A stretch of 64,000 nt of DNA, taken from the IMG/VR virus record IMGVR_UViG_3300009551_000002, positions 1-64,000 of that record, one strand, 5' to 3'. This DNA is from a virus (taxonomy: Duplodnaviria > Heunggongvirae > Uroviricota > Caudoviricetes). The position numbers and the translations under genes were made by a program. Shown piece after piece: positions 20,062-23,583 of this stretch. The first letter of the stretch is position 1; each line of letters starts with the position of its first letter. The notes beneath the pieces are model-generated. The model was not told the origin of the DNA and made no database searches. It was given only the letters and a program-made list of their open reading frames with translations.

Positions 20062-20259
20062 TTGGCCTTCGTCATGGCCAAACGCCCAACCAAAGAAGAG
20101 ATCGAAACCTACCACAGCACTAAAGACGACGAACGCACCCTAGCGATCAGCGTCAATTCCCCGCTCCTCAGAATCGTCAACGTGAGTGCGGCGCAACGAT
20201 CGATGACTGTAAGGGATTTCGTCATCGAATCCATCCTTCGCAATCAGGAGACGAACTGA
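20062..20259 (+). CDS. small hypothetical protein (possible RHH-like)
   Basis: 65-aa ORF, ATGA overlap with the downstream gene. Confidence 0.3.
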   Translation: MAFVMAKRPTKEEIETYHSTKDDERTLAISVNSPLLRIVNVSAAQRSMTVRDFVIESILRNQETN

Positions 20260-22040
20260 TGCTGTCTCCGAGAATCGTATTCGTCACGACTTGTAAGGGG
20301 CGCATCGAGCACGTCAAGAAGACGCTGCTGCAAAACATGACGGACAACATCGGATATGCGAACTGCAAGTTTGTGCTCATGGACTACAACAGTGGGGACG
20401 GATTGCAGGAGTATATTAAATCCGTCTGCGTGCTGCCCACTGAGAACGGATACTTGACGGTCTATAGCTTTCCTACAGCCGATCGTTTCCACGTCTCTCA
20501 CGCGAAGAACTTGGCGATGCGCTGTGCAATGCTCGAAGGCGCGGACATCCTCGTCACGCAGGATGCCGACAATTACACCGGCCCCGGATTCGCTCAGTTC
20601 ATCGCGGACAGGTTTTTAGAAGCGGGTCCGTGGGCCGGAACTCCAGCGATTTGGCCGGGCATGTTTCTCTGCCCAAACTTCCCACACATCAAGAGTCTGC
20701 CACATGGACCTGAGTCTGGACGCCCTGATCGTGGCTATGCAGGACGACTCGCCATTCGCGCCAAAGACTTCATTAAGATGGGCGGCTACGACGAGGGATT
20801 CGACACGTGGCACGGTGAAGACGTCGACATGATCGCGCGGCTGGATCGCCTCGGTTATGCGATGCGTCACTTCGAGAACAAGAACCTGCGGACAATCCCA
20901 CATGGAGCGGACGTTCGTTTCAAGGAATATCCGCACGCTAAGCAGTACGAGAACGATCGTGAGTGGAAAGTCATCGCTGATAGGACGACGACGGTCGTCA
21001 ACAACGGCCAGTTCGGCTGCGGGACGGTATACAAGAACTTCGACTTTACGAATCCGATTATGTTCAAACCGCTGCCGACACGGATATTCGGGATCGGCAT
21101 GCACAAGACTGGCACCACGGCGCTGCATCATGCGTTCGAGATCCTGGGATTCGATAGTCTCCATTGGGGTACGGGCGAGGCTCCGCGCATCTGGCAAGAG
21201 ATGCAGGCGAACGGGCGGTCAAATCTGTTGGAGCAATGGTACGCGTTCTCTGATCTGCCATTCCCGTTGCTGTATGAGAAGCTCGACAAGGCGTATCCGA
21301 ATTCCAAGTTCATTCTGACGGTGCGTAATGAGGAGGACTGGATCAAGAGCGTGGAAGGATTATGGGACGCCAAGTCGAATCCGACGCGATGGGTGTGGGA
21401 CAAGTACCCATTCACGAATCGCATTCACCGCGAGCTATACGGACAGACACACTTCGATAGGGAAGTGTTCCTCGAACGTTATCGTCGGCATAATGCGGAA
21501 GTCGTCGCATACTTCGGTAGTCGGATCGACGATCTGACGATAATGCACGACCGCAATACCGGATGGCACACCCTTTGCAGGTTCCTGGGCGTGCCAGTAC
21601 CGGACGTTCCTTACCCGGTCAGCAATAAGACTTCGGCCAACCGCGAGTACATAGAGTTGGTGGAGTCGGGGGAGAGTTATTGTGAGCCGGAGAGTAAGCC
21701 GGACGTGATCTTCAATATCCTCGCTAACGGAGAGTCGATTCTCTCGTCTCCGGAAATTAAGCCAGGGTTCCCGCCAAAGATCCATGAGGACGCGGAACCG
21801 TTCGTCCCAGATCCTCCGAAGCCAGTCGGTGCAGCACAGTCTCATTCGTTCAAGTGGCCGAAGTCGACCATGATCGATGAGGCGAAGGCACTGGCTGCCA
21901 TCCCCGCGTGGCAGGACATGACTATGGACATCCTGTTGCGCAATTACAAGGTCGTCGCGGTCGTCGTGATCCTGGCGTTCCTATTGGGATTCCTAAGCGA
22001 CGAAATATTGGTGCATTTCAGGAAAAGCTGGCATATTTGA
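20259..22040 (+). CDS. glycosyltransferase (GT-A fold) - sulfotransferase fusion protein
   Basis: N-terminal GT-A features (DxD-like QDADN); central sulfotransferase 5'-PSB motif GMHKTGTT and 3'-PB-like LTVRNEEDWIKS; C-terminal TM helix. Confidence 0.55.
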   Translation: MLSPRIVFVTTCKGRIEHVKKTLLQNMTDNIGYANCKFVLMDYNSGDGLQEYIKSVCVLPTENGYLTVYSFPTADRFHVSHAKNLAMRCAMLEGADILVTQDADNYTGPGFAQFIADRFLEAGPWAGTPAIWPGMFLCPNFPHIKSLPHGPESGRPDRGYAGRLAIRAKDFIKMGGYDEGFDTWHGEDVDMIARLDRLGYAMRHFENKNLRTIPHGADVRFKEYPHAKQYENDREWKVIADRTTTVVNNGQFGCGTVYKNFDFTNPIMFKPLPTRIFGIGMHKTGTTALHHAFEILGFDSLHWGTGEAPRIWQEMQANGRSNLLEQWYAFSDLPFPLLYEKLDKAYPNSKFILTVRNEEDWIKSVEGLWDAKSNPTRWVWDKYPFTNRIHRELYGQTHFDREVFLERYRRHNAEVVAYFGSRIDDLTIMHDRNTGWHTLCRFLGVPVPDVPYPVSNKTSANREYIELVESGESYCEPESKPDVIFNILANGESILSSPEIKPGFPPKIHEDAEPFVPDPPKPVGAAQSHSFKWPKSTMIDEAKALAAIPAWQDMTMDILLRNYKVVAVVVILAFLLGFLSDEILVHFRKSWHI

Positions 22041-22058
22041 ACAGGAGTCATAACTCAC

Positions 22059-22871
22059 ATGAGAACCTTTATACATCCAGAAACCGGAAGACGATTCTCG
22101 ACGGGCCGCAAACGGCCTGACGCGGAGAAGGTGAAGCGCGCGCTGCGTATGGACAGGTACATGGCCGTCGCGCTGCCTGTTCCACCCAACAGGACCTACT
22201 ACGCGAGGAACGCGGCGGCATCGCTGGGGAATATCTTCGGTAACGATGTCGAAGGTGATTGCACGATCGCTGCGGTCGCGCACGATGAAGGAGTCTTCAC
22301 TGCGAATGCCGGTGGTCCGATCTTCGTACCGACCCTGGAGCAAGTCAACGCGATGTATAGCCGTTGCGAAGGACCTCCGGGATTCCCGGCCATCGACGAG
22401 GGCTGCGACGAAATCACGGTCCTGAACGACTATAAGACGAATGGACTGGCTGGTCACAAGTGCGCGGGTTGGATGACGGTCAATGCCATGGATATTCGCC
22501 AGTGCATGACGGCGCTGTGGCTATTCGAGAACCTCTATCTAACGGTGGAGTTGCCGGACGCTTGGATCAGCCCGTTCCCGAGCGGTGACGGCTTCGTGTG
22601 GAACATCGCTGGTGAGCCTGACCCGAACAACGGTCACGCGATCGTCGCCTGCGACTACAATTTCTCCGTGCCGAACTATCCCAAGTTCGTCGTCGCGACC
22701 TGGGGAATGCTGGGATATCTCAAGCCGGGCGCGCTGATGAAGTACTTCGTGCCTTCGGCGGGTGGGGGATGCTACACAGTGCTGAGTCAGGAGACGATCA
22801 ATCGCGCGAAGGGGCGCGCACCGAACGGGTTTGACTGGGCGCAGTTGCAGGCTGATTTCGCAGCGTTATGA
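22059..22871 (+). CDS. putative papain-like cysteine peptidase (C39/CHAP-like)
   Basis: EGDCTIAAVAHD (Cys motif) and NGHAIVACDY (His motif) with peptidase-like spacing; RBS CAGGAG. Confidence 0.3.
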   Translation: MRTFIHPETGRRFSTGRKRPDAEKVKRALRMDRYMAVALPVPPNRTYYARNAAASLGNIFGNDVEGDCTIAAVAHDEGVFTANAGGPIFVPTLEQVNAMYSRCEGPPGFPAIDEGCDEITVLNDYKTNGLAGHKCAGWMTVNAMDIRQCMTALWLFENLYLTVELPDAWISPFPSGDGFVWNIAGEPDPNNGHAIVACDYNFSVPNYPKFVVATWGMLGYLKPGALMKYFVPSAGGGCYTVLSQETINRAKGRAPNGFDWAQLQADFAAL

Positions 22872-22883
22872 AAGGGGATAACC

Positions 22884-23036
22884 ATGCCGAATTACCACAA
22901 GAGACGAAGAAAGAGATTCCACATTCTGAAGAAGATGATCGTCGGAATGCTGATGATCCTGGACAGTCACTTGGAGCATCACGATAAGGAGCACGTCAAG
23001 AAGTTCATTCACTTCCTGAACAATCTCTATGAGTAA
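22884..23036 (+). CDS. small basic hypothetical protein
   Basis: 50-aa ORF not in the track, filling the gap before cysC. Confidence 0.2.
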
Positions 23037-23583
23037 GGGCTTCACTCTTTGGTTTACCGGGATGTCAGGTTCCGGCAAGACGACCGTGGCGGAACTCCTG
23101 GAGAAGTGTCTACGCGTGACGGGCAGCAAGGTCGAAGTGCTCGACGGCGATGCGGTGCGTACGCATTTGTCGAAGGGATTAGGATACAGTCGTGAGGACC
23201 GCGACGAAAACATCAAGCGCATTGGATTCGTCGCAGAGTTGCTGTCACGTAACGGGATCGTCGTCATCGTCGCGGCGATCTCTCCGTACCGCTGCTCCAG
23301 GGAGCAGGTGCGGGCACGCATTCCGAACTTCATCGAAGTGTACTTCGAGTGCCCATTGGAAGTATTGATCGAGCGTGACGTCAAGGGACTGTATCGGAAG
23401 GCGATGGCAGGCGAGATCGAGCACTTCACCGGGATCTCAGATCCCTATGAAGCTCCTTGCGATCCGGATGTGATCGTACATTCAGATCGTGAGTCCCCGG
23501 AACAAGCTGTATACAAGATTTGCCATGCGTTGGAGGAGCGGATTCGCGACATCGAGTACGCGGGCATGCGAGTAGGAGTGTAA
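23029..23583 (+). CDS. cysC: adenylylsulfate (APS) kinase
   Basis: [10 protein letters not shown]-loop, [50 protein letters not shown]; near-identical to the CysC consensus. Confidence 0.75.

Follow-up and report, generated by a model that had tools for sequence, protein, structure and literature searches.

What would a soil bacteriophage do with an enzyme that makes activated sulfate, a sulfotransferase that could spend it, and a peptidase set between the two? This question is raised by a cassette in positions 1 to 64,000 of the IMG/VR record IMGVR_UViG_3300009551_000002, from a virus of the Caudoviricetes (this whole 64,000-nucleotide stretch is called the window below). The cassette encodes a 593-aa protein in which a glycosyltransferase (GT) is joined to a sulfotransferase (ST), here called the fusion; a 270-aa papain-like protein, p270; and a 184-aa CysC, the kinase that turns adenosine 5'-phosphosulfate (APS) into 3'-phosphoadenosine 5'-phosphosulfate (PAPS). 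A preliminary description had proposed that these parts together sulfate a glycan of the host surface or of the phage, and the three open reading frames (ORFs) that it delimited were recovered, with the same ends, on the plus strand. The recurrence of these genes together in other genomes argues that the fusion, p270 and CysC are a real functional module, and the enzymology that we assign to it is very probable. The best explanation of the whole, that the operon adds a sulfated sugar to an acceptor that is cytoplasmic or lies on the inner side of the membrane, is put forward more cautiously, at a little under even confidence.

We examined the ST half of the fusion by profile, alignment and fold. 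Sulfotransfer_4 (PF17784) matched aa 275-459 at 1.1e-36 (127 bits against a cutoff of 22.8), and the match spans positions 1-213 of the 215 in the profile. The segment earlier read as a sulfotransferase does, then, match a sulfotransferase profile, and the profile is Sulfotransfer_4 rather than the Sulfotransfer_1 or Sulfotransfer_3 that had been proposed: Sulfotransfer_3 reached 24.7 bits, short of its cutoff of 27, with a match confined to a short stretch, and neither Sulfotransfer_1 nor Sulfotransfer_2 gave a Pfam match on the fusion. The 5'-phosphosulfate-binding (5'-PSB) loop GMHKTGTT, at aa 280-287 (nt 21096-21119; family form G-[ML]-[HQ]-[KR]-T-[GA]-T), aligned to the 5'-phosphosulfate loops GAGFGRTGT of Cpz8 and GAGLPRTGT of the schistosome sulfotransferase. 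The 3'-phosphate-binding (3'-PB) pair R356...S364 (nt 21324-21350) aligned to LTVRDSERWYDS of Cpz8. Both motifs picked out in the preliminary description were thus borne out by alignment with solved enzymes. Loop and pair are kept in 30/30 or at least 90% of homologues, and D299, S300, H302 and D332 are invariant as well.

The best match of the ST profile in the PDB was the schistosome sulfotransferase (1e-18), and the domain aligned end to end with Cpz8 at 2.5e-15. The predicted fold gave Foldseek template-modelling (TM) scores of 0.6-0.75, normalised to the target, with 5tiv, 9kf2 and 8y9p. By profile and fold the nearest relatives are the schistosome oxamniquine sulfotransferase, Cpz8 and SgdX2. 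Cpz8 belongs to the caprazamycin pathway of Streptomyces and sulfates phenolics (PMC11677658); its structure was solved with 3'-phosphoadenosine 5'-phosphate (PAP) bound, and SgdX2 is described as an 'activating sulfotransferase'. The recurrent adjacency to and fusion with APS kinase described below indirectly support the use of PAPS by the ST half.

In the GT half, Glyco_transf_7C of Pfam matched aa 162-215 at 7e-8 (32.4 bits against a cutoff of 23), a match that covers the C-terminal sub-domain of the GT only. Glyco_tranf_2_2 stayed below its cutoff on the fusion (20.6 against 27.3 bits), and relatives of the protein match Glycos_transf_2 strongly. The DxD motif, D102-A103-D104 (nt 20562-20570), is invariant in an alignment of 30 homologues, and W184xG186-E187-D188-x-D190 is invariant or nearly so; we take this WxGEDxD to be a Gal/GalNAc-T-like motif. 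An AlphaFold2 (AF2) model of the fusion had a mean predicted local distance difference test (pLDDT) score of 80, with both catalytic cores above 90. Foldseek returned K4CP, PmHS2, ppGalNAc-T2, PcManGT and B4GalT1 for the GT half at E values of 1e-9 to 1e-6, and these matches give it a GT-A Rossmann-like fold. The GT-A fold with its DxD motif and the Sulfotransfer_4 match together uphold the earlier reading of the 593-aa protein as a GT-A enzyme coupled to a PAPS-type sulfotransferase.

We found 968 relatives of the GT domain at E<=1e-10, multi-GT polypeptides among them, and relatives were also seen in glycan-tailoring or glycolipid-like gene clusters. In one cluster (L107:1-18850) the GT relatives are multi-domain, with three GTs in one chain or a GT with a radical SAM domain. 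They are accompanied there by genes for a DegT aminotransferase, a GFO/IDH oxidoreductase and radical-SAM/SPASM proteins, and an integrase and a Dnd phosphorothioation island (DndB, DndC-like, DndD) adjoin the cluster.

Beyond the two catalytic domains, the fusion has a disordered linker at aa 460-553 (AF2 pLDDT below 50 at aa 471-553) followed by a hydrophobic tail-anchor helix, placed at aa 558-587 (nt 21930-22019) by a hydropathy scan and at 563-591 in the AF2 model. The tail is common to P0002, P0003, P0004 and P0015; in all, such a tail is present in about 10 of the 120 proteins of the family. Another member, P0024, carries a DUF2061 membrane domain. Across the family the only extra domains found fused to the GT-ST core were APS kinase, transmembrane tails and DUF2061.

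The identity of CysC was clear from its profile scores, in agreement with the preliminary description. APS_kinase (PF01583) matched at 2.9e-61 (206 bits against a cutoff of 21.1), and two NCBIfam models exceeded their curated cutoffs (PRK00889, 268 against 244; TIGR00455, 226 against 139). APS kinases are marked by a Walker A motif, DGD, LG(F/Y)SxxDRxENIRR and ISP(Y/F). In the 184-aa protein the corresponding P-loop GMSGSGKTT, DGD, LGYSxxDRxENIKR and ISPY, as well as FTG, are intact, and on these sequence features it is a bona fide APS kinase.

The relationships among the CysC proteins were more informative. The window CysC is 69-77% identical to many cellular CysCs, including 69-73% to the chromosomal Bryobacteraceae-type (Acidobacteriota) enzyme, and it groups with cellular CysCs; its identity to the other fusion-linked CysCs is 39-51%. 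Between fusion loci the CysCs are 39-57% identical and the fusion cores 50-72%. As the CysCs are far less alike than the fusion cores, and that of the window is cellular in type, CysC appears to have been recruited several times independently, and such repeated recruitment suggests that the supply of PAPS is limiting. From sequence comparison, this independent recruitment is the strongest argument both for a PAPS-dependent ST and for limiting PAPS.

The likely host group is Acidobacteriota-like. A Bryobacteraceae metagenome-assembled genome (MAG) has CysC in a PAPS_reduct-APS_kinase-PHP arrangement (L106:5283-7363), and in another host-type genome CysC adjoins three Sulfotransfer_1 genes (L105:3986-6552). 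The PHP protein of the former may be a PAP phosphatase. Since genomes of this group have CysC, the likely host would already make PAPS, and the phage enzyme would boost the supply rather than create it. No ATP sulfurylase was found among the window ORFs, so APS would have to come from the host. We also considered CysC as an auxiliary metabolic gene of sulfur assimilation and rejected this, because no sulfurylase or reductase accompanies it and because CysC is fused to the sulfotransferase elsewhere.

The third component, p270, matched no Pfam family at E<=0.1, Peptidase_C1 included; it matched phrog_19005 at 1.5e-18. A profile of its family matched xylellain (3ois) at E=1.2e-4, and in this match the catalytic Cys and His coincide; xylellain is reported to bind a ribonucleotide. 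The AF2 model of p270 was of good quality (pLDDT 87, predicted TM score 0.88), and with it Foldseek found xylellain and cathepsins K, L and B at TM scores of 0.5-0.65. Coverage was highest for pro-forms, the (pro)cathepsins, which suggests that the basic N-terminal extension of p270 sits at the position of a pro-region. The family invariants are N62, C68, H75, H193 and W215; of these, C68 and H193 are unchanged across 30-34 homologues and correspond to the Cys and His of xylellain. At the position of papain Asn175, before T214-W215, p270 has Ala and the family D, A, G, C or N, and the position equivalent to the oxyanion Gln19 is the invariant Asn62; both equivalences are ones that we assume from motif spacing. 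Two further motifs, TDxGCDE and ALWLFENLY, are invariant in the family. Profile and model together indicate that p270 is a C1-like Cys/His enzyme lying outside Peptidase_C1 at the profile level, and in this sense the papain-like peptidase placed earlier between the two other genes is corroborated.

Homologues of p270 of about 45% identity were found in cells (L070:8001-8882, L071:8001-8876, L072:8001-8879), where they stand alone among housekeeping genes in bacterial contigs of 77-667 kb and have the same basic N-terminal extension. They constitute an uncharacterised, conserved bacterial family without a Pfam domain. Acquisition of xylellain-type C1A peptidases by Myo- and Siphoviridae has been reported in a review (PMC10380794). 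In an uncultured myovirus (L103; MW202816.1, 23913-24644) a p270 homologue, annotated as 'cysteine protease and beta', comes after the baseplate genes and runs over the end of an N-acetylmuramoyl-L-alanine amidase gene; from this locus, a role in lysis or at the cell wall may be suspected for part of the family. A role for p270 itself as a lysis enzyme was rejected: no lysis genes lie close to it in the window, and the family is found next to the fusion far more often.

How widely does the fusion occur? The metagenomic candidates scored (90% clusters) included more than 1,137 homologues with E<=1e-3, typically 55-63% identical over a core of about 450 aa. A family-alignment query of IMG/VR gave 63 viral loci, and a single-protein query gave none. 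A search of about 185,000 species genomes recovered the full fusion from only 4 MAGs, in prophage-like form and with hosts spanning Acidobacteriota and Alpha- and Deltaproteobacteria; one MAG copy lies at a contig end amid phage recombination and lysis genes, and carriage by prophages is exemplified by L001/L074 in a Solibacteraceae MAG. The 50,697 deposited phage records yielded one partial match to the fusion, 28% identical, and cultured phages gave 5 matches to CysC; PHROG has no family for the fusion. The fusion family is therefore large, uncharacterised and confined almost wholly to phages and prophages. The earlier remark that such a system is uncommon holds for cultured phages and fails for metagenomes, where there are more than 1,100 clusters at 90% and the family is common in soil viromes.

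The scores obtained for the three proteins lie far outside what chance would give, and unrelated phage contigs repeat the same set of genes. The evidence that the parts work together, as had been suggested, came from 65 fusion loci. A member of the p270 family lies within 1.6 kb of the fusion, on the same strand and either upstream or downstream, in 18 of them. A standalone CysC adjoins the fusion in five, and all five also have p270 (Fisher p=0.001, on loci that are not phylogenetically independent). In three further proteins APS kinase is fused directly to the GT-ST core, N-terminally in P0020 and C-terminally in P0101 and P0007. A GT-ST-APS-kinase triple fusion (L002:10001-13107) has a truncated kinase domain, and the overlapping next ORF carries the rest of that domain followed by Peptidase_S8; the two ORFs are either one giant GT-ST-APS-kinase-S8 protein broken by a frameshift or genuinely split. 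Peptidase_S8 is here a second, non-homologous peptidase linked to the fusion.

Other neighbours of the fusion are mixed (HNH nucleases, small and large terminase, methyltransferases, helicases), and the fusion occupies an accessory slot ahead of the packaging genes. PADLOC gave no match for the fusion, p270 or the flanking ORFs and trivial P-loop matches only for CysC, and on this negative result a known anti-phage defence system was rejected. At one locus (L030:11251-12120) the ORF directly downstream of the fusion combines an APS-kinase-like P-loop with a nucleotidyltransferase domain (HxGH), and may be a novel PAPS-synthase-like bifunctional enzyme.

The layout of the cassette is given in Table 1. 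It is compact, with overlapping stops and starts and Shine-Dalgarno sites: AGGAG precedes both the 593-aa and the 270-aa genes, the stop of the 65-aa ORF overlaps the start of the fusion gene (junction AGGAGACGAACTGATG), and the stop of the 50-aa ORF overlaps the start of cysC. The 65-aa ORF, without a match in Pfam, PHROG or PADLOC searches, has a 42%-identical homologue immediately upstream of the fusion in L003, and from its sequence it is possibly a regulator of the ribbon-helix-helix (RHH) type. The 50-aa ORF gave no match in a family search and is possibly a mere translational-coupling leader; a conserved peptide substrate was rejected for it, as it is confined to identical copies of this phage. 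The promoter candidate is weak, since sigma-70-like sites in the region are no more numerous than the shuffled expectation.

Table 1. Coordinates of the cassette, its protein domains and its flanks in the window
Feature	Position	Strand	Basis
tRNA gene, upstream flank of cassette	19428..19503	+	ARAGORN; Rfam tRNA 56.8 bits
Candidate sigma-70-like promoter, TTGACT-18-TAGTAT, ahead of operon	20033..20062	+	consensus scan
65-aa ORF, possible ribbon-helix-helix-type regulator	20062..20259	+	ORF list
GT-ST fusion, 593 aa	20259..22040	+	ORF list
GT-A domain of fusion, aa 1-265	20259..21053	+	Pfam, family alignment, AF2, Foldseek
PAPS-type sulfotransferase domain of fusion, aa 275-459	21081..21635	+	Pfam, alignments, Foldseek
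C-terminal tail of fusion	21636..22040	+	AF2; hydropathy scan
p270, papain-fold (C1-like) peptidase homologue, 270 aa	22059..22871	+	ORF list; profile; model
50-aa ORF	22884..23036	+	ORF list; gene call in four independent assemblies
CysC (APS kinase), 184 aa	23029..23583	+	Pfam, NCBIfam profiles
First tRNA of minus-strand array, downstream flank of cassette	24883..24953	-	ARAGORN; Rfam tRNA 49.2 bits

The surroundings are those of a phage. The window contains phrog_1735, phrog_200, phrog_2018, phrog_2210, DNA polymerase A, helicases and about 31 tRNAs, and no deposited phage is close to it at the DNA level. Four metagenome assemblies, independent of one another, contain identical copies of the cassette, and the contigs concerned reach 119 kb. 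Synteny with phiCbK-like phages was considered as proof of insertion and set aside as uninformative, as it ends at a 676-aa gene. Just upstream of the cassette, a 163-aa ORF (19519-20010, +) combines a signal peptide with a dockerin-like repeat for Ca binding (DLNRDGTVD) and a fibronectin type III (FN3)-like Ser/Thr-rich domain. In L005, L006 and L030 a homologue is found no more than about 6 kb away from the fusion, and the protein could serve as a substrate or be cargo with no link to the module.

The cassette is bracketed on either side by tRNA genes. The array of about 31 tRNAs occupies 24883-29501 on the minus strand, together with the plus-strand gene upstream of the cassette. One tRNA of the array has a CTA anticodon (25024-25096; Rfam 68 bits) and would read UAG. 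For the two tRNAs that flank the cassette, both confirmed as tRNA by Rfam, ARAGORN gave odd anticodons of 4 bases. These odd tRNAs could be suppressor or frameshift tRNAs or have mis-called anticodon loops. Within the array lies an HNH endonuclease ORF (26019-26600, -; phrog_23251, 5.5e-17) whose ends overlap a predicted tRNA-Leu (25953-26032) and a predicted tRNA-Tyr (26526-26615), the latter not recovered by Rfam at the gathering threshold in the range searched; the ORF resembles a homing endonuclease inserted among tRNAs. Other cargo of the window includes a 510-aa protein with an N-terminal domain of the uracil-DNA glycosylase superfamily (7306-8838), a NADAR-domain protein of ADP-ribose processing (9307-10041), a family A DNA polymerase (12206-13621) and an SPFH/Band-7 lipoprotein-like protein (17749-18531), with a second Band_7 match among the small ORFs.

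When we compared the module with known systems, each part had a relative and each relative differed. Cpz8 (9kf1/9kf2) and SgdX2 (8y9p) share with the ST half the Sulfotransfer_4-type family and fold, the 5'-PSB loop, the 3'-PB Arg/Ser and a C-terminal GW..LC.F motif. However, they are about 28-31% identical to it, single-domain, encoded in actinomycete natural-product clusters and active on small phenolic or hydroxyl substrates, whereas the ST of the fusion is joined to a GT-A, phage-borne and sometimes membrane-anchored. The schistosome enzyme (4mua, 5tiv) is alike in Sulfotransfer_4 fold and PAPS motifs, but is eukaryotic, known for xenobiotic activation and without a GT domain. The GT half shares the GT-A fold, DxD and WxGEDxD with GT2, GT7 and GT27 enzymes (E. 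coli K4 chondroitin polymerase, the heparosan synthase PmHS2, ppGalNAc-T2, beta4GalT1) at only 12-17% identity, and has no second GT, lectin domain or polymerase architecture. The xylellain-type short bacterial C1A peptidases are like p270 in papain fold and Cys/His dyad, and p270 has an N-terminal segment that is probably placed as a pro-region; p270 departs from them in lacking a Peptidase_C1 match, in the Ala at the Asn175 position and in the invariant Asn that replaces the oxyanion Gln.

As a whole, the module has a parallel in logic in the rhizobial Nod-factor sulfation genes NodH and NodPQ and in other bacterial pairs of sulfotransferase and PAPS synthesis, where the gene of an enzyme that forms PAPS adjoins that of the sulfotransferase using it on a glycoconjugate. 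Here, too, dedicated PAPS formation sits beside an ST, but NodH is of the Sulfotransfer_1/3 type and NodPQ includes ATP sulfurylase, while the present system has APS kinase only and a Sulfotransfer_4 enzyme that is GT-fused and viral. The phage GT systems of Gtr serotype conversion, T-even DNA glucosylation and mycobacteriophage virion glycosylation resemble the cassette in their accessory position and differ from it in having no sulfation or PAPS. One source (PMC12619734) mentions phage GTs in such positions as modifying the cell surface, DNA or the virion. The GtrA flippase, GtrB and serotype-specific GtrC of Gtr cassettes were not found in the window or the 65 loci, and a Gtr-like or polysaccharide-export context was rejected, these families being absent from the window and from the neighbours of the 65 loci.

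We propose the following scheme for an operon made up of the RHH-like ORF, the fusion, the C1-like peptidase, the small ORF and CysC. ATP sulfurylase of the host would make APS, which the phage CysC, in a step well supported by its sequence, would phosphorylate to PAPS. The GT-A domain would then move a hexose or N-acetylhexosamine from a nucleotide sugar to the acceptor, using the DxD/metal site and the WxGEDxD motif; fold and motifs are those observed, and donor and acceptor are our inference. The Sulfotransfer_4 domain would O-sulfate the product, or a neighbouring hydroxyl, with PAPS, and in this phage the C-terminal tail anchor would keep the enzyme at the membrane. As the acceptor we prefer a glycoconjugate of the envelope that is conserved and close to the membrane, or its lipid-linked precursor. 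The surface of infected or lysogenic cells would in that case be altered and anionic, with receptor masking or superinfection exclusion as the outcome; alternatively, progeny would be shielded from adsorbing to debris. The C1-like peptidase is a genuine but optional partner; it may act on a protein that takes part in the pathway, or the pathway may regulate it.

An envelope glycoconjugate as the acceptor is a tentative choice, one that we hold with less assurance than the scheme as a whole. It is favoured because tail anchors recur in about 10 of 120 members and DUF2061 in P0024, because GT relatives sit in contexts of glycan or glycolipid assembly, and because the fusion occupies an accessory slot near HNH and terminase genes and is carried by prophages, as lysogenic-conversion genes are. 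The sulfotransferases beside CysC in host-type genomes suggest, in addition, that sulfated products are native to the host group. Several observations weigh against the envelope scheme. Flippase, polymerase, acyl-carrier and glycan-export genes were not found in the window or the related loci, and a membrane anchor is lacking in about 90% of the family. The 50-72% identity of the fusion across host phyla exceeds what would be expected of enzymes for strain-variable surface glycans. The nearest solved sulfotransferases act on small molecules, not on carbohydrates, and the peptidase has no obvious role in a glycan pathway. The sulfated glycan of the host surface or virion in the preliminary description is accordingly not established: neither a flippase nor a polymerase nor a link to structural genes was found, and the nearest ST relatives do not speak for sulfation of a glycan.

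A protein target would account for the peptidases and for the ppGalNAc-T-like fold; on this reading the GT-A domain O-glycosylates a virion protein or a conserved host protein, the ST sulfates the glycan and the peptidase processes the same protein. The peptidase is the commonest partner of the fusion (18 of the 65 loci), a non-homologous Peptidase_S8 takes the same position in L002, and the GT half is like the ppGalNAc-transferases. GT-A toxins glycosylate conserved host proteins, and a conserved protein acceptor would fit the high conservation that the fusion shows in phages from several host phyla. The fusion is often just upstream of the packaging/structural module, and the secreted dockerin/FN3-like ORF is near it in the window and in three other loci. 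There is also precedent for virion glycosylation in phages, in the mycobacteriophage capsid and tail tube (mentioned in PMC12619734). However, a peptidase is missing from 72% of the loci, no gene for a candidate substrate is kept beside the fusion, and the cellular p270 homologues stand alone, without GT or ST. The Foldseek likeness to ppGalNAc-T is no better than that to polysaccharide synthases, and the Peptidase_S8 case is one locus that may be a frameshift artefact. We consider a protein target unlikely, and grade in the same way its fuller form, in which phages of soil bacteria make a proteoglycan-like sulfated glycan on a virion or host protein that is processed by a C1-like or S8 peptidase. 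Somewhat less probable still is a soluble metabolite as the target, for instance a host anti-phage compound or signal inactivated by glycosylation and sulfation, or, in a variant, one whose hydroxyl is 'activated' by sulfation as a leaving group. The nearest solved ST relatives, Cpz8 (PMC11677658), SgdX2 and the oxamniquine-sulfating schistosome enzyme, point this way, as do the solubility of about 90% of the family and the standalone GT relatives of L108, which lie in a natural-product or glycolipid-like cluster (phosphopantetheinyl transferase, methyltransferase, exporters); a universal acceptor would also account for the strong conservation. Yet the cassette has no biosynthetic or transport genes for such a molecule, the recurrent tail anchors point to a membrane-bound substrate, no known defence or anti-defence family was matched, and the peptidase is left unexplained.

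The two remaining explanations are both very improbable. The least supported is hypermodification of DNA or RNA, with the GT glycosylating a hydroxymethylated base and the ST sulfating it as protection from restriction. Phage GTs classically glucosylate hydroxymethylcytosine DNA, the schistosome relative of the ST sulfates a hydroxymethyl group, and the fusion often neighbours genes for DNA methyltransferases, HNH nucleases and terminase, the usual place for DNA-modification genes. Phage nucleotide-modification systems based on GTs and STs are mentioned in PMC10829341, with attribution to Iyer et al. 2013. A hydroxymethylase of the thymidylate-synthase family was, however, not found among the window ORFs, and tblastn with a single query, of limited sensitivity, gave no ThyA-like match in the window or 77 loci (1.33 Mb of flanks, +/-10 kb). 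No DNA-binding domain was detected, the fusion is found in prophages and small temperate-type genomes, and membrane tail anchors are ill-suited to a DNA enzyme. It is equally improbable that the three genes have no common function, CysC serving assimilation and the peptidase lysis or the cell wall, with nothing shared except an accessory hotspot. The cassette does lie in a tRNA-flanked hotspot, the p270 homologue of MW202816.1 overlaps an amidase gene, cellular p270 and CysC homologues occur without the fusion, and most fusion loci have neither partner. Against this, divergent genomes repeat the adjacency with the genes in either order, three architectures join CysC to the enzyme in one chain, every CysC-positive locus is p270-positive, CysC without sulfurylase or reductase would be no help to assimilation, and there is translational coupling inside the operon.

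The component domains of the module belong to well-known families. The searchable literature contained no description of the GT-ST fusion family, of its convergent coupling to PAPS synthesis or of its link to a C1-like peptidase, and the searchable phage literature on sulfation offered passing mentions of ST domains in viral contigs, or PAPS reductase morons, which are a different enzyme. So far as that literature goes, sulfation is essentially unstudied in phage biology. The fusion family would represent a compact, two-step 'glycosylate then sulfate' catalyst with a possible use in glycoengineering. A protein, DNA or small-molecule target would make it a new class of phage modification chemistry: a sulfated protein glycan would be the first sulfation-based macromolecular modification in phages, and the neutralisation of a host anti-phage small molecule or signal by sulfated glycosylation would be equally novel. 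If the envelope is what is sulfated, soil bacteria such as the Acidobacteriota, which are abundant and hard to culture, would have their receptors masked, or undergo lysogenic conversion, in a new way.

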